64,000 nucleotides of DNA from Candidatus Nomurabacteria bacterium (GCA_020631995.1 JACKGJ010000001.1:97753-161752); one strand, 5' to 3'. Numbered from the stretch's first letter, positions 8,441 to 61,374 are shown. A program made the numbers and translations. Notes: generated by a model not told the origin, from the sequence alone.

Positions 8441-8608
8441 GCTAGAATACTACCATCGTCAGTTAACGCTTGGATAAAAGCAGATTTTGAAATTTCGAGC
8501 GCAAAACAAGCTGGAATCCAAACTTTATCTAGATAAGGCTTGGATGAAGCGAAGTTTTGCAGCCGAAATTTCGAAATGTGTGTCCAATGGCTAATTGACG
8601 ATGGTATC
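8441..8608 (-). ncRNA. hairpin-rich leader/sRNA element, copy 1 (paralog of 32539-32750); a small ORF is the alternative
   Basis: About 165 nt folding into one long irregular hairpin (outer stem TACCATCGTCA/TGACGATGGTA, inner GAAATTTCG/CGAAATTTC, apical CTTATC-TA-GATAAG). Shares conserved blocks with the gatC-upstream copy. Starts just after an extended -10. Confidence 0.4.
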
Positions 8609-8638: not shown

Positions 8639-8755
8639 ATGAGTTTTCTATATAATCAAAAAACCAAAAAGGCTATAAAGTGGGTATGGATTGTGATTGC
8701 GACTTTGATTGCGATTAGTATGGTGTTTGCCTATTCTGGCGGCCTAGGAATCTAA
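8639..8755 (+). CDS. possible small hydrophobic peptide (38 aa)
   Basis: Own translation MSFLYNQKTKKAIKWVWIVIATLIAISMVFAYSGGLGI; below the track cutoff; no SD seen. Confidence 0.3.
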   Translation: MSFLYNQKTKKAIKWVWIVIATLIAISMVFAYSGGLGI

Positions 8756-8762
8756 AAAAGTT

Positions 8763-8868
8763 AAAACGGGAGAATTTGCATTCGCTTCAGCCAAATCCCT
8801 CCTGCACTATAGTTTTCTATGTTTTAGTCGTGACTTGTCCTCCAGCGAAAGCAACTTCATCCCGTTTT
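8763..8868 (-). repeat. rod-like palindromic element, family 2 (ATGAAGTTG...CTGAAGCGAA...CAAATTC core)
   Basis: Outer stem AAAACGGG/CCCGTTTT encloses a core whose reverse complement aligns with the elements at 39909-40021 and 46887-47065. Confidence 0.55.
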
Positions 8869-8927
8869 ATTCTTTTTAGAAAATATTTATCGAAATTAGC
8901 ACCACTGCCTCGGTTTTTGGCGTAATC

Positions 8928-10709: not shown

Positions 10710-10718
10710 TGTTGGCCT

Positions 10719-10724
10719 ACTCTA
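10719..10724 (-). promoter_or_regulatory. -10 box (TGTGCTAGAGT) 9 nt upstream of the lepA ATG
   Basis: Minus-strand read GATGTGCTAGAGTAGGCCAACAATG; same TGTGCTA(A/G)AGT motif upstream of tRNA-Arg and tRNA-Gln. Confidence 0.45.
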
Positions 10725-10894
10725 GCACATCAGTTTACAGTTACCAGTTTTAGTTTCTAGTGACAACAGACTTTTTTCAAAAGTAGATGCAGATGTGCTG
10801 GTTGGAAGAATTTTGAGAGGAAGCCTTAGTTAACCTAAGGTGACTGAGCAAAATTCTGAAACCAGTGCAGATGTGCTAATTTTGAAAGAAAGGC

Positions 10895-12559
10895 TTATAT
10901 AATCTCCTCCTGTGGGGCTACCACGTCAGTCTTAAGAAGCTTCTTTTGGAATGATATATAAACCTCGTGAAGTTCTGGACTTTTAAACCAAGCATAAGTA
11001 ATAACAGTACCAAACACTCCAGCACAGCCAGCCAAAAATCCTTGAATAAGGATACCCACGAAACGGGCTTGATCAACCCCCTCTACAATGAAATTAAGAG
11101 TTACGTAGGCAAAGAGTCCTCCAACTGTAGCGGCGCAAAACGCATATATAAGTGACCGTCCAATCCACCTCATTGGTATTGAAAAGGCGCGTGACATAAC
11201 AAACAGCAGAACTAACGACTGCAAGATGACTGCTAAGGTGTATCCGAAGGCGATAGCTAACACTTCTGAGCCAGTCACCCCTTCAAGTCTCATAAAGGCA
11301 GAGACCACCGTATGGATACTAGTTTCAGCTAGATAGAAAGATAAGAAACCGTAAGCTGAGGCGATAGCTAAGAGTGAACCAAGAAAAGTGACTACGAAAG
11401 GTACCAGAGTTTTGCCCCCAGCATAGAAAGCTCGTATCACTACTAAGTTAATGGCCTGAGCAAGAAGTGATATGACTAGAAGTGCCAAAACTGCCGCAGT
11501 GAGCCGTGTGTCGGCCCAGTCGAAAGCACCACTACCAAGCACTACACGCACTATCTGTGCACGCAAAACAACAATGAGTGCAATAGCTGGAACTGACCAA
11601 AAGACAATATGCCGGAGTGAGGTTGTTATATGCAGAGAGAATTCTGCACGCATTTGCTTACCATAAAGTTCAGCCAACATTGGAAAAGCAGCTACCGAAT
11701 AAGACACCCCAATGATAGCAAGTGGTACAGATTGAAGGTTGTACGCAAACTGGAATATAGCTACCGACCCCACCGTCATCGCACTCGCTAGCCCCACCAA
11801 GAACAACAGTACGATTTGTTGCATCGAGAGGGTAAGAGCTCGCGGGATTGATAGAGTCAGGATTCTGCCAATTTCCTGCCAATTGAACTTGAAGGCTAGA
11901 CCAATAGATAACTCACTCCGTCTAACAAACGGCCACTGCACAATGAGATGAAGAAAAGCACCTAATACAACACCAAGTCCAAGTCCAAGAAGTCCGAAGA
12001 GTGGATAAAGGAAAAGAATACCGATGATAATACCGAAGTTGTATGTGAGTGGTGAGATGGCATAGAGCACAAATCTGTGACCGAGCTGAGTCACCACTCC
12101 GAAGAGGCTTGAGATACCAAGCAGAAATGGTTGAAGGAGTAGTAGTTGGGAAAGCAGGACAAGAGACCCAGTATCCTCAATACCTGGAAACAACTTTGGT
12201 ACAAAGTATGGAGCCGAAAAGAATGCTAATATCCCAAACAACGAGTAGGCTAAAAGAAACAAGGTAAAGACTTGAGATAAGAGGTGACTCCCCTCTTTTC
12301 CCGCTCGAGTTACAAACGGTATCAAGACATAGACCGACAAGGTCGATGCGAACAGTACAAACAGTAAGTCTGGTAAACGGAAAGCTGCGTAATAAATATC
12401 GAGCTCGGCACCAGCACCAAACTGATGAGCTAAGAGACGATCGCGCAGTAATGCCAGGAGCTGTGAACCGATGGCGAACATCGCCAACACGTACGCAGCC
12501 TGATGTAGGCCACGTACCTCTTGATACATTAGAGCAAAGACTCGCCGTACCATAAGCAA
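10895..12559 (-). CDS. murJ: lipid II flippase MurJ (MviN family)
   Basis: 554 aa polytopic; N-terminal pattern SQLLALLRDRLLAHQFGAGAELDIYYAAFRLPDLLF typical of MurJ. Confidence 0.85.
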   Translation of the reverse strand: MLMVRRVFALMYQEVRGLHQAAYVLAMFAIGSQLLALLRDRLLAHQFGAGAELDIYYAAFRLPDLLFVLFASTLSVYVLIPFVTRAGKEGSHLLSQVFTLFLLAYSLFGILAFFSAPYFVPKLFPGIEDTGSLVLLSQLLLLQPFLLGISSLFGVVTQLGHRFVLYAISPLTYNFGIIIGILFLYPLFGLLGLGLGVVLGAFLHLIVQWPFVRRSELSIGLAFKFNWQEIGRILTLSIPRALTLSMQQIVLLFLVGLASAMTVGSVAIFQFAYNLQSVPLAIIGVSYSVAAFPMLAELYGKQMRAEFSLHITTSLRHIVFWSVPAIALIVVLRAQIVRVVLGSGAFDWADTRLTAAVLALLVISLLAQAINLVVIRAFYAGGKTLVPFVVTFLGSLLAIASAYGFLSFYLAETSIHTVVSAFMRLEGVTGSEVLAIAFGYTLAVILQSLVLLFVMSRAFSIPMRWIGRSLIYAFCAATVGGLFAYVTLNFIVEGVDQARFVGILIQGFLAGCAGVFGTVITYAWFKSPELHEVYISFQKKLLKTDVVAPQEEII

Positions 12560-16128: not shown

Positions 16129-16342
16129 TGGTGTGAGAAAGCTTACAGTGCTTTCGCAAGACCTTTTGAGATATTTTGTAATTCCGAGCTTGTCGAGGAA
16201 GAAACAAAATATACAAAAGGTGTACCGCATCCGTAGGATGAGGAAGCCTGGGAGGCTTTCGCAAGACCTTGCCTGACAATTTATGAGGCGTATAAGCCTC
16301 TATCAATAAATGTCGATAAGGTGTACAGCGACTGTAAGTCGC
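16129..16342 (-). repeat. two tandem copies of the family 1 hairpin core (not tRNA-linked)
   Basis: Minus-strand reads CATCC-TAC-GGATG-C-GGTACACC + long hairpin ACCTTTTGTATATTTTGT/ACAAAATATCTCAAAAGGT + GGTCTTGCGAAAGC..., and GCGAC-TTACA-GTCGC-T-GTACACC + ACCTTATCGACATTTAT/ATAAATTGTCAGGCAAGGT + GGTCTTGCGAAAGC... Confidence 0.65.
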
Positions 16343-28830: not shown

Positions 28831-29076
28831 AAAAGCAAAACTGTTTGCTTTTCACCGCTTGGCTACGGCATCGCTCCGGTCTTCAAGTCCCTATACCAGC
28901 AAAGCAGTTGTTTGTGAGGGGACTTGAAACTTACAGTTTCAGTACACCTTTTCGATATTCCCCTTCACAAGTTCTGGGAATATCTGAAAAGGTCTTCAAG
29001 TCCCACAAGACAGTTCCCCGAACTGTCTTTTTCGCTCACACAAAATAAAAGCCCCCATTAGGGGGCTTTTATTTTG
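28831..29076 (+). repeat. tRNA-Asp-linked composite element (family 1 core plus copies of the tRNA-Asp T-arm/acceptor 3' half)
   Basis: GAAACT-TAC-AGTTTC hairpin, GTACACC, long hairpin ACCTTTTCGATATTCCCC/GGGAATATCTGAAAAGGT. Then TTCAAGTCCC, a 26-nt hairpin and TTCGCTCACACAAAATA, which together are the reverse complement of tRNA-Asp nt ~29071-29096. Extra GGGACTTGAA/TTCAAGTCCC copies at 28882-28926. Confidence 0.7.
29044..29076. terminator. bidirectional terminator next to the tRNA-Asp 3' end
   Basis: AAATAAAAGCCCCCATTAGGGGGCTTTTATTTTG. Confidence 0.75.
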
Positions 29077-29150
29077 CGCGAGCGAAGGGACTTGAACCCT
29101 CAACCTCTGCCGTGACAGGGCAGCGCTCTAACCAGTTGAGCTACGCCCGC
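29077..29150 (-). tRNA. tRNA-Asp (anticodon GTC)
   Basis: Acceptor GCGGGCG/CGCTCGC (G4:U69), anticodon stem CTGCC/GGCAG with loop CTGTCAC, T arm GAGGG-TTCAAGT-CCCTT, discriminator G. Confidence 0.9.
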
Positions 29151-29221
29151 AAAACGCTATATAAGCGGGCAAAGTATAGCCTGTTCAGACCGCTTTTTCA
29201 ATAGCCACGTAATATCGGTCA

Positions 29222-29384
29222 AATTTGTGTCGACGGGAGGGATGAAGCTTACAGCTTCCGTACACCTTTTCGATATTTCCTTTCATTACTTCAGGAAATA
29301 TCTGAAAAGGTCATCATTCTCTCCCGCGCACAAAATCACTCTTGCGCAAAGCTCCATGCATTCGCTTTACGCTCGGTGTTTTTG
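29222..29384 (+). repeat. tRNA-Met-linked composite element (family 1 core plus direct and inverted copies of the tRNA 3' half)
   Basis: 19-nt exact direct repeat TTTGTGTCGACGGGAGGGA at 29224-29242 and 29381-29399 (the latter inside the tRNA). GAAGCT-TAC-AGCTTC hairpin, GTACACC, 17-bp hairpin, then inverted copy TCATCATTCTCTCCCGCGCACAAAAT at 29311-29336. Confidence 0.7.
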
Positions 29385-29540: not shown

Positions 29541-29872
29541 TTGCGGGGCCTGGAATTGAACCAGGGTCTGGAGGTTCTGTTATTCGCTCACTTTCATGAG
29601 TGCATGGACTATCCCATATTCCTGGATTAAAATATCCTTAGGAACTCTCCATTATAGTCTCTGAACCTTCCGTCTGCTTTCGCAGAGGGCTTGGCTGCCG
29701 ATTGCCGAATCTTTACTTTTTTAAAGCATTCACACTCACCCTCTCAGGTCATGTTGTAGCAAGCAAAGCTCTAACGGTATTCCAGCAATTTAGAAGATTT
29801 TTCCATACCGCATTACTGCGATAGGTCACAGTTTCCTATGAGCCTCCCGAGGTACCACTCCTCTACCCCGCT
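29541..29872 (-). tRNA. tRNA(CAT) with initiator-like features, interrupted by a group I intron (exons 29872-29838 and 29576-29541)
   Basis: Spliced sequence gives AGCGGGG-TA-GAGG-AGTGGTA-CCTC-G-GGAGG-CTCATAA-CCTCC-AGAC-CCTGG-TTCAATT-CCAGG-CCCCGCA-A. Features: 1:72 mismatch (A:A) and A11:T24. Confidence 0.8.
29577..29837 (-). ncRNA. group I self-splicing intron (261 nt, no ORF) in the anticodon loop after CAU
   Basis: 5' exon ends in U and the intron ends in G. P1 UCAU/GUGA; P2 hairpin AUCGCA-GUAA-UGCGGU. Classical P/Q/R/S elements: AAAUUGCUGGAAU, AAUCGGCAGCC, GGUUCAGAGACUAUAAUGG, GGGAUAGUCC. Confidence 0.8.
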
Positions 29873-29974
29873 GTGTGCTGAAAGATTGTACCACTTACTA
29901 CCTAAAAGTCCAGCATTATCTCTTTGTGTAAGAAGCCTAAAATTTAGACGATTTCGAGGCACGCGAGGAAAATG

Positions 29975-30115
29975 GCACGAGCCGTATATGGACATACGGT
30001 GTGAGAAAGTCTAGGAGACTTTTGCAAGAGGTTGGCAGCTATTCTGACGCAAGGAAGAATAGCGACAACCTAAACAGCTTCTGTAAGAAGTGACATTTTG
30101 TCGAAGCGTAACAAA
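29975..30115 (-). repeat. hybrid repeat: CGTATATGGACATACG hairpin (family 2) plus a divergent family 1 core
   Basis: GTGTGAGAAAGTCTAGGAGACTTTTGCAAGAGG parallels 16129-16160. Hairpin GGTTGGCAGCTATTC/GAATAGCGACAACC replaces P3. CTTC-TGTAA-GAAG replaces P2. Confidence 0.45.
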
Positions 30116-30142
30116 GAAAGCGACAAATTTTAGACTTCTTGG

Positions 30143-30787
30143 CTAGATGAAGTTGAATTCGTCGAACACCATCTTATACTCCGCTACAGTCTGTCTCGCC
30201 TCCTTTTGACTTAAATTGAAATCCGCCCCCTCGTGCGCAATTTTATTTCGCACATTATGGGCACGCCAAGCTTGATTAATAGTTGTGAAAGAAGTCGGAG
30301 AGGCGCTTTTCAATTTTTCGCCAATGGTAGTACCGGCGTACCCTAGAGTATTTAAAAGTTCGTCCAAAATTATATCTGCTTCGATAATAGCGAGTTTCCA
30401 ATCATTTGGTCTTTCACTGTCGCTATGCACAAGCACATCCTGCCAGCGCAAGTTTTTCACATCCTTTTTGTGTATCTTTGCAAAGGCCTCTTCCTGTCTT
30501 TTTAAGATTTCAGCAAATACTTCACCAAGCTGATTGTGTTTTATATATGCATAAATGATGCCAAAGATAAGCAAGAATGAGGCAAACCAAGACAATACAA
30601 CAAAAACATTCCACGCATCAGAAAGCCAAGCGAACACCGCGCCTGGTGACCAATTCGAAACCACTCCTCCACCTGCACCACCGTCGCCTGCTCCTCCCCC
30701 GCCAAACAAGAAAGCAAAGACGTAGTCTATGAACGCAAAAAAATCCAGTGAATACTCGTTAAATAAGATGTCGTTATTATCAGGCAC
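30143..30787 (-). CDS. hypothetical membrane protein with C-terminal HEPN-like (Rx4H) helical domain
   Basis: 214 aa; Gly-rich segment, one or two TM helices, C-terminal AWRAHNVRNKIAHEGADFNLSQKEARQTVAEYK. Confidence 0.6.
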   Translation of the reverse strand: MPDNNDILFNEYSLDFFAFIDYVFAFLFGGGGAGDGGAGGGVVSNWSPGAVFAWLSDAWNVFVVLSWFASFLLIFGIIYAYIKHNQLGEVFAEILKRQEEAFAKIHKKDVKNLRWQDVLVHSDSERPNDWKLAIIEADIILDELLNTLGYAGTTIGEKLKSASPTSFTTINQAWRAHNVRNKIAHEGADFNLSQKEARQTVAEYKMVFDEFNFI

Positions 30788-32538: not shown

Positions 32539-32750
32539 CTGTTAGAAATTATTGCTTACTTATATGAGCCCGCTCCAGCGAGAAAGATATACCATTTCCA
32601 GTTAACGCTCCTACATTAAAACCTTTCATAATTTCGAGCGAAAGACGAGCTGGAGTCCGAGCTTTATCTAAATAAGGCGAGGACGAAGCGAAGTTTTGTA
32701 GCCGAAATTCTGCAAGGTTTATGGGGTGTTTAACTGAGGATGGTATAGGT
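32539..32750 (-). ncRNA. hairpin-rich leader/sRNA element, copy 2 (paralog of 8441-8608)
   Basis: Conserved blocks ATACCATC, GAATTTCGGCTnCAAAACTTCGCTTC, CCTTATnTAGATAAAG, TCCAGCT, CGCTCGAAATT, AGCGTTAACTG, ATGGTA shared with copy 1. Outer stems ATACCAT/ATGGTAT and CAGTTAA/TTAACTG. Confidence 0.4.
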
Positions 32751-32762: not shown

Positions 32763-34778
<2,016 letters not shown>

Positions 34779-34861
34779 TTAACCTTGATTCTACCCTTAT
34801 TTTATAAGGAAAAAAAGCTCTGTTTCTCAGACAATTAGTTGAAACCTGCCCATTAGCTAAA

Positions 34862-35093
34862 CATCTAAAATTGGAGGCAGTTGTGCACCACAAGAGTACT
34901 TCCATTTTTATACTCCTTCCAGTCGTTAAAAATTTGGTCGTCGGTTGGAGGGATTTTTACGAGAGAGACGTATATAGATATACGGTGACTAAGACAACTT
35001 TCTGAAGCAAACGCATCACGGGCATTTCGTTTTTATAGTCGCACTGCGGCGCTCCTTAAAAACTAGTCACAATTCGCCCATTTGGGGGATTTA
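34862..35093 (+). repeat. family 2 rod-like element with extra module (shares a 46-nt identical block with 46914-46959)
   Basis: 34886-34931 is identical to 46914-46959 (CACCACAAGAGTACTTCCATTTTTATACTCCTTCCAGTCGTTAAAA). Contains CGTATATAGATATACG hairpin, CTGAAGC motif and CAATTCG end. Confidence 0.6.
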
Positions 35094-35096
35094 GTC

Positions 35097-35213
35097 TAAA
35101 CCTTAAAACTGGATGAGTGGCGAGGAGTTTAGGCGAACGAGTTGCGAGTGGGACATATTGTCCAACGAGCAACACGTTAGCCGTGACGACAAAGCCAGTC
35201 GCCAGTTTTAAGG
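35097..35213 (+). repeat. palindrome-ended element related to family 2
   Basis: 16-nt arms TAAACCTTAAAACTGG / CCAGTTTTAAGGTTTA enclose ATGAGTGGCGAGGAG...GGGACATATTGTCC...GACGACAAAG; abuts the stop of the last pilin-like gene. Confidence 0.5.
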
Positions 35214-35214
35214 T

Positions 35215-35871
35215 TTAGTACTCAATGGTGATTTCGCGTTGGATAGTGAAGATTGAATCCAACTGATCACAAGGTCGATTATAACCACGTGCAAAAATCA
35301 CTGTACAAATAGTTCCAGCGGTACATTCAATTGTTCCTAGCCCTTCATCAGTCAAATTATAAGAAAGGTCACTGTCAGCATCACGTAAGTCAGCAACATA
35401 AAGACTTGGTTCTGCACACTGGGTACTGTTTATAGTGTACTGATACTGATAGTTATATAAAAGACGGTCACTATTGTTAAACAGAGTAGTGGCTTGTACG
35501 CCAGGGGGGATATTCGGATTCATACCAGCACAAGCAACCGAAGGTGGCCAAGCGCCACTTTCTCTTAAAAATTGTTGCTTGGTTGTTGGTTGAGCTCTAT
35601 GATAACGCATACACTCGAGTCCGATCTGTGCTGACTGAAACGCTTTTTCTGATTCAATAGCAGTTACAGCCAAGAGATATTGTTTGGTTGTAACAAAGAG
35701 CAGTGATAGACCAATGGCCAGAACCACACTTACGACCACTAGAGTAATAAGTAGTGCAAAACCTCTGTTAGATTCTAGTTTTGTAGAAAGCCTGTTAGAG
35801 GAAAATAGCTTTGCATTTTTTTGCAAATGGGCAACTAAAAACTTTAAGTTAAAAACTGATTTAAGGTTCAT
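35215..35871 (-). CDS. PilX-like minor pilin / pilus-associated protein
   Basis: 218 aa; N-terminal NRGFALLITLVVVSVVLAIGLSLLF prepilin-like hydrophobic segment (no Glu5); last gene of the minor pilin set. Confidence 0.55.
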   Translation of the reverse strand: MNLKSVFNLKFLVAHLQKNAKLFSSNRLSTKLESNRGFALLITLVVVSVVLAIGLSLLFVTTKQYLLAVTAIESEKAFQSAQIGLECMRYHRAQPTTKQQFLRESGAWPPSVACAGMNPNIPPGVQATTLFNNSDRLLYNYQYQYTINSTQCAEPSLYVADLRDADSDLSYNLTDEGLGTIECTAGTICTVIFARGYNRPCDQLDSIFTIQREITIEY

Positions 35872-36508
35872 AATAAATATTATAAATATAACTTTCGAGA
35901 GTCACACTGTCAGAAGGATCATCGCCCCAAGAAACTTCTGATCGTACTCTAGCCAATGAATCGCTTACAGTGATTGAGAGTTCACGAGTATAGATTGTAG
36001 GTGTCCCTCCTGATGCCCGTTGTTTCAGTGGTACTCGAGCGCCTTCGTATTTATTAATTGCACAGTTACTACCACTACAGCGATAAAAACTACTGGTAGT
36101 AATAGATCCATCGTCACCGATTTGTACCCCGCACCTATCATCACCCCCTACAGGACACAAAGAAGCTATTGTGGTCATATTACCCCAAACATCTCCTAAG
36201 TCATTATATCCACTTGCATCCAACGCATCATCCTCGCGCAATTTAACTAGAGCCTCAATACCCTCTTGTGCCAAAAATACCGCCAACGTATTATCTTTTG
36301 ATTCAATCGCTCGCTTGAGTCCAGAATGAGCAATGGTAAGGGGACCCACTAATGCAATTAAGAGAACAGTAATTGCCACCAAGACTTCAACTAGTGAATA
36401 ACCCATCTGTTTAGTTGACAGTGACTCTGTGTGTTTAGAAGCAAAAAAACGCAAAACGATTTTTCGCGTATTGAGAACTAGAGACTTTATACTAAAACCT
36501 GTTTTCAT
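35861..36508 (-). CDS. prepilin-type minor pilin (PilV-like)
   Basis: QMG/YSLVEVLVAITVLLIAL class III signal peptide with Glu5. Confidence 0.65.
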   Translation of the reverse strand: MKTGFSIKSLVLNTRKIVLRFFASKHTESLSTKQMGYSLVEVLVAITVLLIALVGPLTIAHSGLKRAIESKDNTLAVFLAQEGIEALVKLREDDALDASGYNDLGDVWGNMTTIASLCPVGGDDRCGVQIGDDGSITTSSFYRCSGSNCAINKYEGARVPLKQRASGGTPTIYTRELSITVSDSLARVRSEVSWGDDPSDSVTLESYIYNIYYEP

Positions 36509-37134
36509 AAATCAAGCACTCGCTTAGTGATAGTAGTTTGGAGCATAAATCCTGATCCAGTCTGTCCAATACCAGCCACCTCTCCCTCTATAAAGATAGT
36601 AACATTTGGTTGAAGTAAGTTACCATCATCTTCCTTACGAGCGGTATTGGATACATTGAAGTGCATATTGGTTATATCAACTGTCGGATTAGTTAGCCTT
36701 ACCCACGAACCAGTACCAATTTTTCGTTCGATAGCTCCGCTAGATGAATTAAAACGATACGCAATACGTCTATTATTATCCCCGTCGGTCAGACTCTTGC
36801 CTCCCTCGATTATTGATAAATAAGTCCCTTTATTGCAACCTTGATGAGTATCAGCATCACCAGTGGTTTCTGTCCCGCTTGAACAATAGAATGCAAAACC
36901 AGTCCTGAGTTCACGTGCCATACTGTCTAGAGCAAACTGGATGTTACTAACTGATTCTTGGGTATTTTGAGCCTTAGCATTAGCGTTGATCAAAACCAGC
37001 AAGGCACCGATACCCATAGTGAGAACAACAGTAAAGAGGGCCATAGAAACCAGGAGTTCTATTAGGGAGAAACCTTTCTGAGAGACAGATTTCTGAACCA
37101 TTGTGACATCTAGTGAAAACTTGAAACCTAACAT
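36505..37134 (-). CDS. prepilin-type minor pilin (PilW-like)
   Basis: QKG/FSLIELLVSMALFTVVL class III signal peptide. Confidence 0.65.
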   Translation of the reverse strand: MLGFKFSLDVTMVQKSVSQKGFSLIELLVSMALFTVVLTMGIGALLVLINANAKAQNTQESVSNIQFALDSMARELRTGFAFYCSSGTETTGDADTHQGCNKGTYLSIIEGGKSLTDGDNNRRIAYRFNSSSGAIERKIGTGSWVRLTNPTVDITNMHFNVSNTARKEDDGNLLQPNVTIFIEGEVAGIGQTGSGFMLQTTITKRVLDL

Positions 37135-37136
37135 AA

Positions 37137-37727
37137 TTATTCGACAGTTATTTGGCCCGCAGTGTTTACTCGTACTAAACGACTTCCAGTATCGTTCAAT
37201 GTTGTAACTCCTATCACGCCCTCTGAAACGGTACCGTTATTCATTACAGCATCGAAATTGGGTCGCCTAAACGTAACTGACAGAGCACTCAAGGCGCAAT
37301 TTGAGCCATTACAAAGTTGGTTAATAGCGAAACGTGTATCCAATCTTCTAGTCTCTAATTCTTCGCCTTCATCATAGTAGCCGTCTTCATCACTGTCACG
37401 AAAAATGATATAGGTACCTGGCTCTGCCGTAGCAAAATATATTCCATATGGACGCCTGAATTCACCACTACTTCCAGTAGCTGATAGAGAGCGTGTTTGA
37501 ACTTCTCTGAGTTCCAATGCAATTTGAAAACTTTGGTTTTTAAGAAGAATCAAATTATTAAATGCTCCATAACGAATAGTTACAATGCCAGTAATTAAAC
37601 CGATAATTGCAGCAGTAACCAAAACCTCGAGGATGGAAAATCCGTTAGTCCCAAAAGGCAGATTACCTTTGAAACCCTTTCTCCTCCCTTTTAGGGTTAA
37701 GTAATATTGATTGTTAGAGGTTTCCAT
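37137..37727 (-). CDS. prepilin-type minor pilin (FimT/GspH-like)
   Basis: TNG/FSILEVLVTAAIIGLITG class III signal peptide. Confidence 0.65.
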   Translation of the reverse strand: METSNNQYYLTLKGRRKGFKGNLPFGTNGFSILEVLVTAAIIGLITGIVTIRYGAFNNLILLKNQSFQIALELREVQTRSLSATGSSGEFRRPYGIYFATAEPGTYIIFRDSDEDGYYDEGEELETRRLDTRFAINQLCNGSNCALSALSVTFRRPNFDAVMNNGTVSEGVIGVTTLNDTGSRLVRVNTAGQITVE

Positions 37728-38584: not shown

Positions 38585-38622
38585 AAACTAAAACAAAAAC
38601 ACCCCACAAGTGGGGTGTTTTT
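38585..38622 (-). terminator. terminator after the second major pilin gene
   Basis: AAAAACACCCCACTTGTGGGGTGTTTTTG on the minus strand. Confidence 0.8.
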
Positions 38623-38649
38623 GTAGATACTATGTAGTACGTCTCCGGA

Positions 38650-39685: not shown

Positions 39686-39908
39686 ATAACTAATTATTTT
39701 ATAACTTTCCCGCTCCAGACATCAGCTGTGTGTCTCGAACAGAACATCCGTTTAATGGATACTATCAATTCTATAGCTATTCTTGGCCATTTTGTTCGAT
39801 GTGTGTGGATAAGACTAGTTTTTTAATGCTCTAGTTTTAAACTTAGAATGTAGTTTTGAAAAATCTGCATATAAACTTTCACAGTTGATCACGACTTAAA
39901 CTAACAGA

Positions 39909-40021
39909 GGATTTTTGGATGCAGTTGTACCAGCTACAAGGAGTTTCGTGCGGAAGGCGTATATGGACATACGACGACCAAGCGAAACGACTGAAGCTGG
40001 TGCAAATGCGCCGAAAATACC
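39909..40021 (+). repeat. family 2 rod-like element (compact copy) between pilC and the pilin gene
   Basis: GGATTTTTGG/CCGAAAATACC outer arms. ATGCAGTTGTACCAGC pairs with GCTGGTGCAAATGCG. Apical CGTATATGGACATACG hairpin. GACCAAGCGAAACGACTGAAGC core. Confidence 0.6.
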
Positions 40022-40023
40022 TG

Positions 40024-41232
40024 TTAGATTGAGGCGGTCATATTGTAGATAGGCAAAAGAACAGACGCCAACAAGGTTCCTACACCAAGACCAAGCATAA
40101 CAATCATTACTGGTTCAATCAGTCCAATCAAAGTGTCGACAGCATTGTTAACCTCACGTACGTAGAACGTTGCTAGTGTCTTCATAATTTCCGAAAGATT
40201 TCCAGTCTCTTCCCCAACTTTGGCCATCTGTGAAAGTACGCCAGGAATTTCAGGATATTCGGATAATGCATCAGCAAATGATCGTCCACCCTTAACTTCT
40301 ACTAAAGTATTTTGTAGGATTTCTTTATAGACAGCGTTGTCTACCACTTCAGCTGTAACTTCGAGTGCCTGCACCATAGAGATTCCACTTTGAAGCATTG
40401 TGGCTAAGTTGTCACAAATGCGGGCAAGATAAAGCTTTTGATAAAGGTCACCCAAATATGGCAAAGTGATTTTTAGCTCATCATAGGCTCGGAGTCCAAC
40501 TGGAGTTTTTATAAAACGCCAAAGGAACACTCCACCAATAGACGCAAGTGCTAATATCACTCCTATGTAATCAGTAAGGACAGTAGATATGGCTATGACA
40601 ATCTTTGTATAGATAGGCAATTCTTGACCGGAATCAAGAAGAATTTGACTAATACGAGGAATCACCATTGTTAGCATCAGACCCATCACAAGTATGAATA
40701 CACCAACAACGAAAGCTGGGTACACAAGAGCGTTTCGAGCTTTTGTTATCACCTGGTAGGTTCTGTCTAGATAATCCGCCAAGTAACCGAACGATTGTTC
40801 TAGAGAGCCAGACTCCTCACCAGCTCGTATCATATTTATATAGAAATCACTAAAGACATCGGGGTGTGCAGACATAGAACGTGAAATTGAACTACCAGCC
40901 TGCAAGTCATCGGCAATATCATTCAACACCTTTTGCATCTGCGGATTCTCAGCCTCAGTACCTAAAAGACGAAATATTCTAAGAGCAGACACCTGAGCAT
41001 CAAAAAGGGTGGCCAACTGACGGGACAGTATAACCACCTCCTTGTTTGATATACGTTGAAACCAATTAATTTCAAAATTTAAAAATTGTTGCTTCTCTTC
41101 TACCGGATCAATTGATATCACTGTATATCCGCGTTTTTGCACAGTCGCAATTGCAGCATCGATATTGCCAGCCTCGACAGTACCGTCACGCTTTACGTTA
41201 GTTTGGTCAATGGCTTTATAGGAGAACAACAT
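40024..41232 (-). CDS. pilC: type IV pilus platform protein PilC (GspF family)
   Basis: 402 aa; duplicated T2SS-F domain architecture with three TM segments. Confidence 0.9.
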   Translation of the reverse strand: MLFSYKAIDQTNVKRDGTVEAGNIDAAIATVQKRGYTVISIDPVEEKQQFLNFEINWFQRISNKEVVILSRQLATLFDAQVSALRIFRLLGTEAENPQMQKVLNDIADDLQAGSSISRSMSAHPDVFSDFYINMIRAGEESGSLEQSFGYLADYLDRTYQVITKARNALVYPAFVVGVFILVMGLMLTMVIPRISQILLDSGQELPIYTKIVIAISTVLTDYIGVILALASIGGVFLWRFIKTPVGLRAYDELKITLPYLGDLYQKLYLARICDNLATMLQSGISMVQALEVTAEVVDNAVYKEILQNTLVEVKGGRSFADALSEYPEIPGVLSQMAKVGEETGNLSEIMKTLATFYVREVNNAVDTLIGLIEPVMIVMLGLGVGTLLASVLLPIYNMTASI

Positions 41233-41375
41233 AGTTATAGCTATAGTTTAAGGTGAAAAGCTGAAAGTTCAAAGGTATAAAGCTGTGTTTAACTTAAATA
41301 GTATGACAGAGAGTTTTGGATGTGCGATGTCTAGAGAACCTATAAATGAGACTCAGTAGTTTTCATCGTTTAAAT

Positions 41376-46729: not shown

Positions 46730-46738
46730 ATGTATTTC

Positions 46739-46744
46739 ATTATA
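46739..46744 (-). promoter_or_regulatory. -10 box (TATAAT) 9 nt upstream of the pilN-like ATG
   Basis: Minus-strand read GGCGTATAATGAAATACATATGGCA. Confidence 0.45.
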
Positions 46745-46886
46745 CGCCTACTCTGCAAATCGCTTTTATACTCTCTGTGGACAAGGTTTATAAACACTGG
46801 ACGTTCAGTCACTGCAACTTCACCTACCCCTGCGACCATACAGACAACTTTTGTAAAATTAAAATGAGGATGTGACATTATCTAAT

Positions 46887-47065
46887 AAATCCTCCAAATG
46901 AGATGAAGTTGTTCACCACAAGAGTACTTCCATTTTTATACTCCTTCCAGTCGTTAAAACTTTGGTCGTTTGCTGGAGGGAGGACTACGCGGAAGACGTA
47001 GAAAGAACTACGGCGACCAAGTAGTCCGACTGAAGCGAAGACAAATTCGCTCATTTGGAGGATTT
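46887..47065 (+). repeat. family 2 rod-like element (long copy) between pilM and pilN
   Basis: Perfect 16-nt arms AAATCCTCCAAATGAG / CTCATTTGGAGGATTT. ATGAAGTTG...GACCAAG...GACTGAAGCGAAGACAAATTCG core. 46-nt block identical to 34886-34931. Overlaps the pilM stop by 2 nt. Confidence 0.65.
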
Positions 47066-48161
47066 ATTGGAACTTGCGGAGCGCGGCGCCTAACGCCACC
47101 CCAAAAGATGGACCAATCTCCTTAAGGGTATCCTCCATAAATGCTGGATAAGCAACCTTGGCAAAGGGATGAGATAACTCTACAGGCCGAGCAAAGCGGT
47201 CTTTAATATATTCCAAAGCGTACGGAGACGCAGAAACGCCACCCGTAATAACGATACGACCAATCTGCTCATTCAAACGAGCTTCGTACTGTCCAATCAA
47301 TCTACCGAATTCAGAAAGTGAAGTTTCAAGAACTGAAGTCATACACTGATGTATGACCGGACCTTGTTCAACATTTCGATCAAAAGAACGTTTCTGATTT
47401 TCTGCGTCTTCAAAATTTATATTTAAACGCTCTGCAACCAATCGTGTTATTTCACGACCACCTTGACCAACACGATGCAGTCGTTCCAGCATACCACCAC
47501 GCACAATGTACAACTTAGAACTCTTCGCACCAATATCAATAACAGCGAGTGTTGTATCCTTCTGTCTCCACAGAGCCCGAATCAAACTAAACGCTTCTAT
47601 TTCCGCCGCTTCTCCTGTCATACCGATTGAAGAAAATAGTTCTCGGTGTTCTGCTAGGGCTTTATTTTCTATAGCAGCGATGAGTACTTCTTTAAAATTA
47701 CTTTTGTTCTCACCCACTGACGGCAGTTCAGACCAATCAAGCGTAACGTCTGTTAGAGGTAGCGGTACATACTTCCGTGCCTCTACTGGAATACGTGTAG
47801 TGATATCTTCTTGTGGACCGATAGCAACTGGAATGACGGTTAAAAAGCTGGAATAGAGAGACATAGCTAAAGCACCGCTGTGTCCCGTGACTCCAGATTC
47901 ACGGATGACGTCTGTCACAGCTTCTACTTTTTTATCTTTCGGCAAATTCACTATCTCGCCTAAAGGTTTAGCATCATAAGGACCGAGCTGTAACTCACCA
48001 TAAGTGCGCAACATTACAGTACGTGGCGTCTCTTCTATCTCCACAACCTTTATAGAAGCGCTACCAATATCAATACCTACAGTAGTTGGACCAGCGTCTT
48101 TCGCCACCTTTTTCACTCCCCCAAAGATTTTTTTAAAAGAAAAGACCATACTTTGTAACAA
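47064..48161 (-). CDS. pilM: type IV pilus assembly protein PilM (actin-like ATPase fold)
   Basis: 365 aa; VGIDIGSASIKVVEIEE phosphate-1 motif, VIDIGAKSSKLYIV, ITGGVS. Confidence 0.85.
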   Translation of the reverse strand: MLQSMVFSFKKIFGGVKKVAKDAGPTTVGIDIGSASIKVVEIEETPRTVMLRTYGELQLGPYDAKPLGEIVNLPKDKKVEAVTDVIRESGVTGHSGALAMSLYSSFLTVIPVAIGPQEDITTRIPVEARKYVPLPLTDVTLDWSELPSVGENKSNFKEVLIAAIENKALAEHRELFSSIGMTGEAAEIEAFSLIRALWRQKDTTLAVIDIGAKSSKLYIVRGGMLERLHRVGQGGREITRLVAERLNINFEDAENQKRSFDRNVEQGPVIHQCMTSVLETSLSEFGRLIGQYEARLNEQIGRIVITGGVSASPYALEYIKDRFARPVELSHPFAKVAYPAFMEDTLKEIGPSFGVALGAALRKFQ

Positions 48162-50216: not shown

Positions 50217-50471
50217 ATGCCAAAAGCTAATTCAGCGTTTATGAAGCCAATGAACATCAGTCCAGAGTTGGCTGAGGTAGTTGGAAAAGGTCCAATGCCA
50301 CGTTCAGAGGTAGTAAAGGCCATCTGGGTCTACATCAAGAAGCACGATTTACAAAATCCTCAGAATAAACGAAATATCCTCGCTGACGACAAACTAAAGC
50401 CTGTCTTTGGTGGGAAGGACGAGGTAACAATGTTTGAGATGACTAAACTCGTCTCAGCACACCTCTCGTAA
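50217..50471 (+). CDS. SWIB/MDM2 domain protein
   Basis: 84 aa; ISPELAEVVGKGPMPRSEVVKAIWVYIKKHDLQNPQNKRNILADDKLKPVFG matches the SWIB consensus. Confidence 0.8.
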   Translation: MPKANSAFMKPMNISPELAEVVGKGPMPRSEVVKAIWVYIKKHDLQNPQNKRNILADDKLKPVFGGKDEVTMFEMTKLVSAHLS

Positions 50472-50610
50472 TTTATTCCAAAGTTGGCGCAGGGCTTGTT
50501 GTTCCTTCGCTAAAAACCTTGCTGGAGTTTTTCTCCCACTCGGTTTCTAGCTTCAGTCCACAACTTCGCCTTGCATCCAATTTTGAAACAAATTGTAATT
50601 TGAGACAAAG

Positions 50611-51493: not shown

Positions 51494-51677
51494 ATGGAAA
51501 TTTATTTACATTTCCGAACGAACGCTGAAAGAAAGCTTGCTTACAGAGCAGTACACCTTTTGGATATTTTATTTCACTTTGCTCATAAACTATCTCAAAA
51601 GGTCTTCGAATCCCTCCTTTTCTCGCAGAATATAATCACAAAAAGCTCCGAGCATTCGCTTTTTGTTCTTTATTCTG
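51494..51677 (+). repeat. tRNA-Ser(GCU)-linked composite element
   Basis: GTACACC plus hairpin ACCTTTTGGATATTTTAT/ATAAACTATCTCAAAAGGT. Then TTCGAATCCCTCCTTTTC(t)CGCAGAATA at 51605-51632, a near-perfect reverse complement of tRNA nt 51671-51697. Loop motif AAGCTCCGAGCATTCGCTTT shared with the Met locus. Confidence 0.7.
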
Positions 51678-60098: not shown

Positions 60099-60545
60099 AT
60101 GAGCGACCTGATTAGAAATAAAAAAGTTGGATTTAACTTTGAACTCCTCGAACGCTATGAAGCGGGCGTGGAACTTTTAGGTACCGAAGTGAAGTCTTTG
60201 CGTAATGGTCAGGGCAAACTTGAAGGCTCGCATATAATAGTGCGGGGAGATGAAGCTTACTTAGTAGGCGCCTCCATACCAGCCTTTCAGAAGGCCAATG
60301 CCCCGAAGGACTATGAGCCAGAGCGGGTTCGTAGATTATTGTTGAAGAAAAAAGAGATTTTGGAGTTATTCACAGAGAGTGAAAAGCGTGGTTTGACAGT
60401 AGTGCCAGTTCGGTGGTATAATAAAGACAGTAAGTTGAAACTCGAAATCGCAGTTGGTCGTGGAAAAAAGAAGTACGACAAACGCGAGGCAATCAAGGGT
60501 CGCGACACCAAGCGATCCATCGAGCGGATATTAAAAGGTGAATAA
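60099..60545 (+). CDS. smpB: SsrA-binding protein SmpB
   Basis: 148 aa; NKKVGFNFELLERYEAGVELLGTEVKSLR typical SmpB N-terminus; tmRNA downstream. Confidence 0.95.
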   Translation: MSDLIRNKKVGFNFELLERYEAGVELLGTEVKSLRNGQGKLEGSHIIVRGDEAYLVGASIPAFQKANAPKDYEPERVRRLLLKKKEILELFTESEKRGLTVVPVRWYNKDSKLKLEIAVGRGKKKYDKREAIKGRDTKRSIERILKGE

Positions 60546-60609: not shown

Positions 60610-60642
60610 TTATGTTTGGCACTTGGAAACGGGGAGGAAGAG

Positions 60643-60906
60643 ATGGAAACTGTACTTTACGAAAATGAGGAGATAGAACTGGGGGCAACAACACAAACTC
60701 CCTTCTGTAACACAATGGAGGCCAAACGTCTGGCCATCATTGAAATGCAGAAAGGACTTACACCCTACGATGAGAAAGTTGTGCTTGACTACCTTGAGCA
60801 CTGCAGTGAATTTCGTCTTTCTGAACTTTTTTCCGGTGAAGAGCTGGAAGAGATCAGGGAGAACATCGCGGTCGACTTGTTGGTGTTGAAAATGATTCTT
60901 CATTGA
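60643..60906 (+). CDS. hypothetical acidic protein (87 aa)
   Basis: Start METVLYENEE preceded by GGGGAGGAAG; the upstream part of the track ORF lies inside the smpB terminator hairpin. Confidence 0.5.
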   Translation: METVLYENEEIELGATTQTPFCNTMEAKRLAIIEMQKGLTPYDEKVVLDYLEHCSEFRLSELFSGEELEEIRENIAVDLLVLKMILH

Positions 60907-60994
60907 CGAGCTGGACCCACTACCCACACATGCGATGGCGGCCAACACCCGCCCTCGCATTCCCTCAAAGCACGGAATAATTTCTTTATTTTGA

Positions 60995-61374
60995 GGGGAT
61001 GACAGGCATCGACGGTTTGCATCGTTCATCCACGCAATGCCGAAATTGGAATCAATTCGTTAAGAGGTTCCATCTGTATCTGCAAACAAAGCAATACCAA
61101 GTCCGTTCTCATACGGATTCGCCTTCGCTCGAGCGTAAGTTCGCGTAGGTGACGCTAACCCGCCCTATGTCTAATAAGGTGGCGTTAGTGGAATAGCATT
61201 AGGCTCTAGATAATTAATTTGTTCCATTAGTTATCCGAATTGTTAGGGACTGCTCGCAGTGAGGTTTTGCTAAATTTTTCACTCACTACGCTAAGATTAA
61301 AACTTAGCTATGCATTGTAGAAGTGTATGGACGACCATTCTCGGACGGGAGTTCAACTCTCCCCATCTCCACCA
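60995..61374 (+). ncRNA. ssrA: tmRNA (SsrA)
   Basis: 5' GGGGATGACAGGCATCGACGG, 3' GGACGGGAGTTCAACTCTCCCCATCTCCACCA with G3:U70. Tag ORF 61082-61138 encodes ANKAIPSPFSYGFAFARA*. Confidence 0.92.

Follow-up and report, generated by a model that had tools for sequence, protein, structure and literature searches.

Several classes of short palindromic repeats are known from bacterial intergenic regions. The REP/BIME sequences and REPINs (REP doublets that form hairpins) of proteobacteria are extragenic imperfect palindromes that occur in many copies per genome, are co-transcribed, persist at orthologous sites, and are mobilised by RAYT transposases of the HUH Y1 type. They lie at gene 3' ends, often no more than 15 nt from the stop codon, their structure is kept by compensatory change, and the single-stranded fold is thought to be the recognised form. 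Integron attC sites are imperfect palindromes of about 60-140 nt located directly after the stop codons of ORFs, conserved in structure and poorly in sequence; the ORF-antisense strand is the one that folds into the functional form, and it is selected by means of unpaired bases. The genomes of CPR bacteria (Patescibacteria), about 1 Mb in size, are streamlined and usually held to be poor in repeats and mobile DNA. TIGR units, which have been reported in CPR bacteria, are hairpins with palindromic flanks and two internal loops, arranged in arrays beside a Tas gene and containing variable 8-12-nt spacers between short conserved boxes (PMC12045711).

The repeat superfamily described here, which on our best reading is new, was found in the window, i.e. 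the whole 64-kb stretch of DNA that was analysed, from a Paceibacterota/Kaiserbacteria-like CPR genome. The PilC protein of the window is identical to one in NCBI assembly GCA_020632025.1 (contig JACKGK010000003.1), and the relatives of the window bear the names Kaiserbacteria or Paceibacterota. Between 30 and 48 kb every gene is on the minus strand, in the order GatA, GatC, LigA (32763-34778), four minor-pilin-like genes (35215-37727), PilD, two pilins, PilC (40024-41232), PilT, a response regulator, PilB, a 94-aa gene, PilO, a PilN-like gene, and PilM (47064-48161). TATAAT- or TAGAAT-like -10 elements lie 7-12 nt before the ATG of the PilN-like gene (46730-46750), LigA (34779-34800), and LepA (10710-10735), which suggests leaderless or near-leaderless mRNAs with little free intergenic space. 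A canonical intrinsic terminator (38593-38624, minus strand), with a 14-bp G+C-rich stem followed by a T-tract, is located after the second pilin gene; the organism thus has ordinary terminators besides the repeats.

Several other features of the window were recorded in passing. A DnaA-box-like motif, TTATCCACA or TTGTCCACA on the gene strand (39804-39812 and 46776-46784), is kept upstream of the pilin and PilN-like genes in all fetched pilus loci, including L024-L036, about 35-100 nt ahead of the start codon, and may represent a regulator site common to pilus promoters. The 5' leader of the pilin gene contains a hairpin (AGACAUCAGCUGUGUGUCU, 39717-39735) that is kept across relatives, with CAGCUG in its loop. 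A group I intron (Rfam, 61 bits) occurs in a tRNA-gene-rich stretch (28925-29316, 29585-29849, and 51549-51577) in which 74-nt repeats adjoin tRNA genes, and in locus L028 (2447-3039) the tRNA gene 3' ends look duplicated after inserts. The tmRNA gene (60995-61374, 108 bits) is 450 nt downstream of smpB (60099-60545), and a 139-aa minus-strand ORF (60610-61029) has been called in the interval.

The repeats are non-coding imperfect palindromes, hereafter rods, with units of about 115-130 nt that become longer (up to 240 nt) with nested insertions. We used two family models, R1, derived from an alignment of rod B (see below) and seven copies from related DNA, and R2, derived from rod E2 and six E-type copies. 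The source alignment of R1 has a consensus rod of 35 pairs, with double-sided changes in 20 of them. R1 gave 19 sense-strand matches across related loci totalling 285 kb, and 1.05 Mb of unrelated viral DNA yielded none. Across these matches 89% of cells are paired and 30 of the 35 pairs have changed on both sides, and for the E type under R2 the corresponding values are 94% and 40 of 45, all four being figures from model-fitted alignments that lean towards the model, with many of the copies being orthologs and not independent events. As controls for R1 pairing, none of 500 shuffles scored as high, and slid registers were 29-45% paired. The models define two main subfamilies, B/A (via R1) and E (via R2), of what the model scores indicate to be one superfamily, since R2 matches B-type copies at 26-40 bits.

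The site on which the analysis centred is the 436-nt gap between the last minor pilin gene and LigA, which contains two adjacent elements. Element E2 (35097-35217, plus strand; sequence, fold, and R2 at 113.5 bits) is an intact rod of the E subfamily. Its arms of 16 nt (35097-35112 and 35202-35217) are perfect, as the original prediction had it, and extend to 17 nt with one further pair; the predicted end at 35213 falls 4 nt short of the true end at 35217. The 17-bp perfect outer stem encloses tandem G.A internal loops and an apical hairpin, GGACAUAUUGUCC, and takes in the TAA stop codon (35215-35217, minus strand) of the 218-aa minor-pilin-like gene (35215-35871, minus strand). The plus strand folds at -62.1 kcal/mol and the minus strand at -49.4 (z -9.8), and the ortholog in locus L024 is 92.8% identical. 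The interior of E2 was described earlier as related to that of its neighbour, and E2 indeed belongs to a sister subfamily, as the R2 cross-matches with B-type copies indicate.

Element A (34862-35094, plus strand; sequence and R1), whose 3' end adjoins E2, is a B/A-subfamily rod with two internal insertions. All the core features first named for it, AGTTGTGCACC, the hairpin CGTATATAGATATACG, GTGACTAAG, CTGAAGC, and CAATTCG, are present in the sequence, and the core pattern has three exact matches versus 0.76 expected. Under R1 it scores 41.9 bits over 34925-35031, compared with 70-118 bits for intact copies; the whole element folds poorly (z -2.2) and is without the 3' strand of two helices that are kept by the intact short relative (R1 98.7 bits) occupying the same site in L026. 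Together with the two insertions, the weak fold and the missing helix strands identify A as a degenerate copy. Its 46-nt module (34886-34931, plus strand) is, as had been claimed, exactly identical to 46914-46959, and sits in an insertion of about 55 nt at the same internal position in A and in rod C. In the predicted fold, its CUCCUUCCAG is able to pair with the conserved CUGGAGGGAG loop. Among 197 loci the module occurs in this genome only; a 24-nt piece of it is found at just two places, in A and C, with a chance expectation of 0, and A and C are 79% identical across 144 nt.

The copies that had been placed at about 39909 and 46887 both exist. Element B (39901-40027, plus strand; R1 110.7 bits and fold) is an intact rod whose outer stem takes in the PilC stop codon (40024-40026); its fold is -56.1 versus -39.4 kcal/mol (z -8.4), and its ortholog in L024 is 89% identical. 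Element C (46884-47068, plus strand; R1 70.9 bits, fold z -6.2) is a rod with the 55-nt insertion and a 19-nt perfect outer stem that takes in the PilM stop codon (47064-47066). E2, B, and C each fold as one long rod, and perfect outer arms of 13-19 nt are present in E2, C, and the copies from L026 and L028. In the gap between PilT and PilC (41233-41375) a decayed remnant of a B-type 5' end, ACAGAGAGTTTTGGATGTGCGATG, is still recognisable, and the same site in L024 holds 1.5 intact copies.

The models detected eight copies in the 64-kb window, and the four others lie outside the pilus cluster. One is located behind MurJ (10895-12559, minus strand; Pfam MurJ) at 10775-10893 (plus strand; R1 70.3 bits), with its 3' end 1-2 nt off the MurJ stop codon and a fold of -51.3 versus -33.3 kcal/mol. 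A second, near LepA (Pfam), at 8758-8872 (minus strand; R1 70.2 bits, fold -46.8 versus -38.9 kcal/mol), is 55 nt beyond the LepA stop codon and adjoins the stop codon of a 38-aa plus-strand ORF (8639-8755), for which one membrane helix is predicted and a weak Pfam match to SteA-like_C was found (E 1e-4). The remaining two belong to the E subfamily. That at 29928-30141 (plus strand; R2 78.5 bits) ends 1 nt from the stop codon of a 214-aa gene (30143-30787, minus strand), and that at 50470-50595 (minus strand; R2 48.3 bits; -55.8 kcal/mol on the minus strand versus -42.3 on the plus strand) adjoins the stop codon of a plus-strand gene (50217-50471) that is labelled SWIB in the annotation of L021. 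Nested in the former is a small hairpin module (30002-30033), the third copy of a sequence of about 32 nt, TGAGAAAGC...GCTTTCGCAAGACCTT, that is also present at 16134-16165 and 16239-16270. A further rod family of about 160 nt is represented by a 74% identical pair, at 8451-8607, between DivIC and a small ORF, and at 32590-32746, 16 nt past the LigA stop codon; its arms are like TACCATCGTCAGTTAAC, its interior CGAG/CGAAG loops resemble those of the E subfamily, and R1 matches it weakly (16 bits). With this pair added, the window contains about ten rods. In relatives, the Patescibacteria MAG UBA6201 (L004) has copies behind rpsF and ssb, and the rpsF-site copy recurs on a metagenome contig.

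The conserved portions of the rods are purine-rich internal loops, and the stems and outer arms vary. In the B/A subfamily the loops comprise AUGNAG after the outer stem, CUGGAGG opposite (GA)CUGAAGC, and, near the apical hairpin, GNGGAAG opposite CGACYRAG; the E type has instead CGAGG/ACAAAG and CGAG/GUGAG. The strands of the apical loop are exchanged in some copies (8758-8872 and copies in L032 and L024, for example), consistent with a roughly two-fold symmetric loop. Motifs in the rods that look like hammerhead or box C/D elements (CUGA, AUGNAG) do not fit the consensus geometry, and both readings were rejected. The frames of ORFs running through the elements are not preserved; B and E2 each contain an ATG-initiated spanning ORF, neither the frame nor the stop of which is preserved in L024 or L004, so that a small peptide was rejected. 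Public gene calls include ORFs of 44-62 aa without a Pfam match at L021 4179-4355, L024 16221-16409, and L035 9798-9932, the first two of which overlie rods and are probably spurious.

We found a strict relation between the rods and the adjacent genes. For the non-tandem copies detected by R1 or R2, which represent 11 distinct gene sites, the 3' end of the element is 0-15 nt from, or overlaps, a stop codon on the opposite strand, and at all 11 the better-folding strand is antisense to the gene with that stop codon. The copy at 8758-8872 obeys this rule only if the 38-aa ORF is real, and 8451-8607, a separate family, has no such stop codon beside it. The -10-like element of the next gene lies beyond the rod; thus the rods fill the narrow interval that separates a stop codon from the following promoter. 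The better-folding strand was the element strand in 21 of the 21 rods tested, by about 12 kcal/mol on average. When symmetric mismatches were counted in structures computed without G.U pairs, there were 26 G.U versus 9 A.C, and in the model alignment 66 versus 17. Mutational skew or background composition was rejected as the source of the G.U excess, the element strand being C-rich overall (GC skew of -0.03 to -0.16 in 15 of 16 bins of the window). The two minus-strand copies of the window adjoin plus-strand genes, and orientation therefore tracks the gene and not the direction of replication; a replication-strand bias of the IS200/IS605 kind is disfavoured, since these two other-strand copies follow the gene and not the GC skew.

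In an alternative explanation the rods are cis-acting RNA structures at host mRNA 3' ends and their repetition is secondary. A long hairpin beginning at the stop codon might shield the upstream message from 3' exonucleases, serve as an RNase III cleavage site, slow ribosomes at termination, or insulate neighbouring transcription units, and roles of this kind at 3' ends have been described for E. coli REP/BIME and ERIC sequences. Besides the location of the copies 0-15 nt past a stop codon and ahead of the next -10-like element, and an orientation that goes with the gene and not with replication, this reading can draw on the strong folding of the gene-sense strand as well (-33 to -69 kcal/mol, z -4.5 to -9) and on the strong constraint on orthologous copies described below. 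However, the excess of G.U over A.C, about 3-4 to 1, is on the strand that is not the mRNA, and it is on that strand that the conserved loops are rich in purines; a U-tract is not consistently present, ordinary intrinsic terminators such as 38593-38624 are used elsewhere, none was called at A, E2, B, or C, and many relatives have no rod at the same site, with a gap of 2-90 nt. We regard this explanation as possible and, on balance, unlikely.

The opposite assignment, in which each rod is an independent small-RNA gene antisense to its neighbour and yields a protein-binding rod with conserved purine loops, accounts for the strand-specific folding, the conserved G.U pairs, and the purine-rich internal loops of the element strand, as well as for a U-rich stretch that follows the rod on it. 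It does not account for the 5' side: no promoter-like site of the sigma-70 type was found on the element strand 5' of A, B, or C, and between the window and L024 the 70-90 nt 5' of the rod are unconserved although the rod itself is 89% identical. The next start codon is just 47-83 nt away from some rods, RNA genes do not usually occur as tandem, nested, and decayed copies, and no Rfam match was obtained. Searches with Rfam 15 at the gathering score in the window and six loci gave only tRNA, tmRNA, and the group I intron, and at E<=10 the matches to A/E2, B, and C were at chance level (12-18 bits). Independent small-RNA genes thus appear very unlikely. With regard to the molecule that folds, there are three candidates on the predicted structures, single-stranded DNA, antisense RNA, and the mRNA 3' end. 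The last fits the position of the rods, yet the favoured strand is the wrong one; antisense RNA fits the strand, yet has neither a promoter nor a conserved 5' flank; and single-stranded DNA fits the structure, yet no known pattern of exposure matches the orientation rule.

Comparison of orthologous copies provides evidence of constraint. Between the window and L024, rod B is 89% identical, compared with 51% at 4-fold sites of PilC and 83.5% for PilC DNA, and E2 is 93% identical, compared with 49% at 4-fold sites of the neighbouring minor pilin gene. The rpsF-site rods of L004 and L020 are 82% identical, with 72% identity of the rpsF protein and 49% at its 4-fold sites. Altogether, rods from equivalent sites of different genomes share 82-93% identity where synonymous sites are saturated (about 50%), and these orthologs resemble each other more than paralogs of a single genome do. 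Orthologous rods therefore outconserve adjacent coding DNA, which indicates that at least some copies are held in place by selection, and their higher identity relative to paralogs suggests that purifying selection acts on copies where they stand, which would not be expected if the element were purely selfish.

The same comparisons bear on the proposal that the elements delimit and partition the type IV pilus cluster, reflecting a mobile or recombining cluster or pilus-specific control. Copies do follow PilM, PilC, and the last minor pilin gene, so that three gaps of the cluster contain four copies, two of which (A and C) have the identical 46-nt module; nevertheless, the family is not confined to the cluster, and the same superfamily adjoins MurJ, LepA, SWIB, rpsF, and ssb. 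The window has 37 intergenic gaps of 60 nt or more, 9 of them in the cluster, and four of its eight model-detected copies are located there, a binomial P of about 0.1 that rises to about 0.2 when A and E2 are taken as one gap. The enrichment at the pilus locus is therefore not significant in the window, an outcome that over these 64 kb largely refutes the proposal.

The synteny of the cluster is likewise independent of the elements. The order PilM...PilC-pilin...LigA-GatC-GatA is identical in 11 further genomes (PilC 79-95% identical), with constant flanks (GDH/PRT upstream and LigA-GatC-GatA downstream), while the rods are present, absent, or swapped. With the window's own genome included in the count, a rod is present in the PilC-pilin gap in 7 of 11 genomes (B, C-like, or E type), in the minor pilin-LigA gap in 5 of 11, and in the PilM-PilN gap in 2 of 11; minor pilin-LigA gaps without a rod are just 2-55 nt. 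Different subtypes thus occupy one site across genomes and one subtype is found at different sites, copies occur in tandem, nested, and decayed, and presence or absence varies at orthologous sites. In addition, a copy often has its closest relatives at a different site in a different genome: the MurJ-site copy at 10775 is 73% identical to the ssb copy of UBA6201/L004, the PilC-site copy of L036 is 75% identical to an L024 copy behind a 213-aa gene, and two copies in L031 are mutual nearest relatives. Nearest relatives at other sites, combined with variable occupancy, indicate a dispersed and occasionally copied element and not a cluster boundary. Neither an integrase or transposase nor a tRNA-border signature is present at the ends of the pilus cluster. 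The rods are no sign of a mobile pilus cluster, and we consider a pilus-specific explanation of any of these kinds extremely improbable; a general post-transcriptional role at gene 3' ends is possible.

Searches for further copies and for a partner gene returned little. In GTDB genomes and JGI metagenomes (the window's genome apart), the strict core pattern gave 20 matches, of which two, in L004 and L020, are true extra copies and the others are due to chance. None of the 41 and 120 pattern matches in viral contigs was confirmed by R1, and BLAST of A+E2 against plasmids and phages gave no match. In the window and the fetched loci, together only about 0.3 Mb, we saw neither a transposase, RAYT, or reverse transcriptase nor any other candidate partner gene.

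Among the described systems, the rods fall closest to REP/REPIN or MITE repeats and, in geometry, to attC sites, while failing defining features of each. Like REP/REPINs they are extragenic and multi-copy, with hairpins of similar size that are kept by compensatory changes according to the R1 and R2 results. In contrast, the alignments reveal no GTAG-type head and one continuous rod in place of an inverted REP doublet, no RAYT gene accompanies the rods in the 0.3 Mb covered, and their conserved parts are the purine-rich internal loops; moreover, their orientation to the adjacent gene is strict, unlike that of REP/BIMEs, and their host is a CPR bacterium.

Comparison with the MITE-like elements, such as Correia elements (Neisseria), ERIC/IRU (enterobacteria), bcr1 (Bacillus cereus), and RUP/BOX (Streptococcus), gives a similarly mixed result. 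Each rod is a non-coding unit of 100-240 nt that has terminal inverted repeats and exists in several copies. Like these elements, the rods are polymorphic for presence or absence, occur in tandem and nested, and are predicted to form long RNA hairpins. However, their outer arms diverge strongly and the interior loops are kept, the reverse of classic MITEs; they have no known cognate IS, their orthologs outconserve coding DNA, and they adhere strictly to the stop-codon and antisense rule. A TA is present on both sides of most copies (TA...TA), and at the PilC site four subtypes have ATC-TA[rod]TA-GA versus ATCTAGAA at the empty site of L032. A TA target-site duplication is only suggested by these sequences, as TA is itself palindromic, the flanks are AT-rich, and the copies at 10775 and L031C are without a clear TA on one side.

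The rods also resemble attC sites in being imperfect palindromes at stop codons whose favoured strand is antisense to the gene, but they have no R''/R' cores (RYYYAAC/GTTRRRY), integrase, or cassette array, and are flanked by syntenic core genes. A resemblance to attC cores (ATCTAAC...GTTAGAT) is restricted to the PilC-site copies, where it is due to the PilC end ATC-TAA, and is absent in E2, C, and the others.

A literature search on CPR palindromic repeats, MITEs, and structured RNAs yielded nothing relevant except TIGR-Tas. As TIGR units are palindrome-flanked hairpins with two internal loops from CPR bacteria (PMC12045711), all of which applies to the rods, the latter could be guide-RNA units of a TIGR-Tas-like or other CPR RNA-guided system. 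However, the rods are mostly single, with no more than two units in tandem, their loops are conserved and their stems vary, which is the opposite of spacers, and no Pfam match to Nop/Tas was found in the rod neighbourhood. We attach almost no credence to this possibility.

Taken together, these observations lead us to favour, with moderate confidence, the reading that the rods are a non-autonomous element akin to REP/REPINs or MITEs that is recognised in the form of a folded single strand and persists at the 3' ends of genes. Under this REP/REPIN- or MITE-like reading, A (decayed) and E2 (intact) are two members of a superfamily populating the 3' flanks of genes in this genome and its relatives, and selection would maintain the rods as a fold of one particular strand. 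Copying between gene 3' ends would proceed via the folded single strand, with the fold recognised by a trans-acting, probably dimeric protein, and copies would be retained only in the narrow harmless zone from stop codon to next promoter, in one orientation. At least the long-lived copies may have a host-level role, acquired or original, at the ends of transcription units.

A bolder version, which we judge quite unlikely, is that the rods are a functional nucleic acid of a strand-specific class not previously described in CPR bacteria. Activity would reside in the strand antisense to the neighbouring gene, as antisense RNA or as ssDNA/cDNA, and a candidate dimeric protein would bind the two-fold symmetric purine loops and place the copies at stop codons. 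A possible route is SINE-like retro-insertion, in which the TAAA of the stop codon would prime on the 3'-terminal UUUA of the element, and an alternative route is hairpin-directed recombination. The host might then have put the copies to use in setting where transcription units end, in a genome with leaderless, tightly packed genes.

On the practical side, gene callers place probably spurious ORFs of 40-60 aa on the rods, and the rods could be misread as the edges of a mobile pilus island. The density in the 64-kb window corresponds to about one structured repeat per 6-8 kb. If the rule of placement and orientation is true genome-wide, the rods would represent either a mobile element that is unusually well behaved or a means, so far undescribed, by which these organisms end or insulate transcription units.
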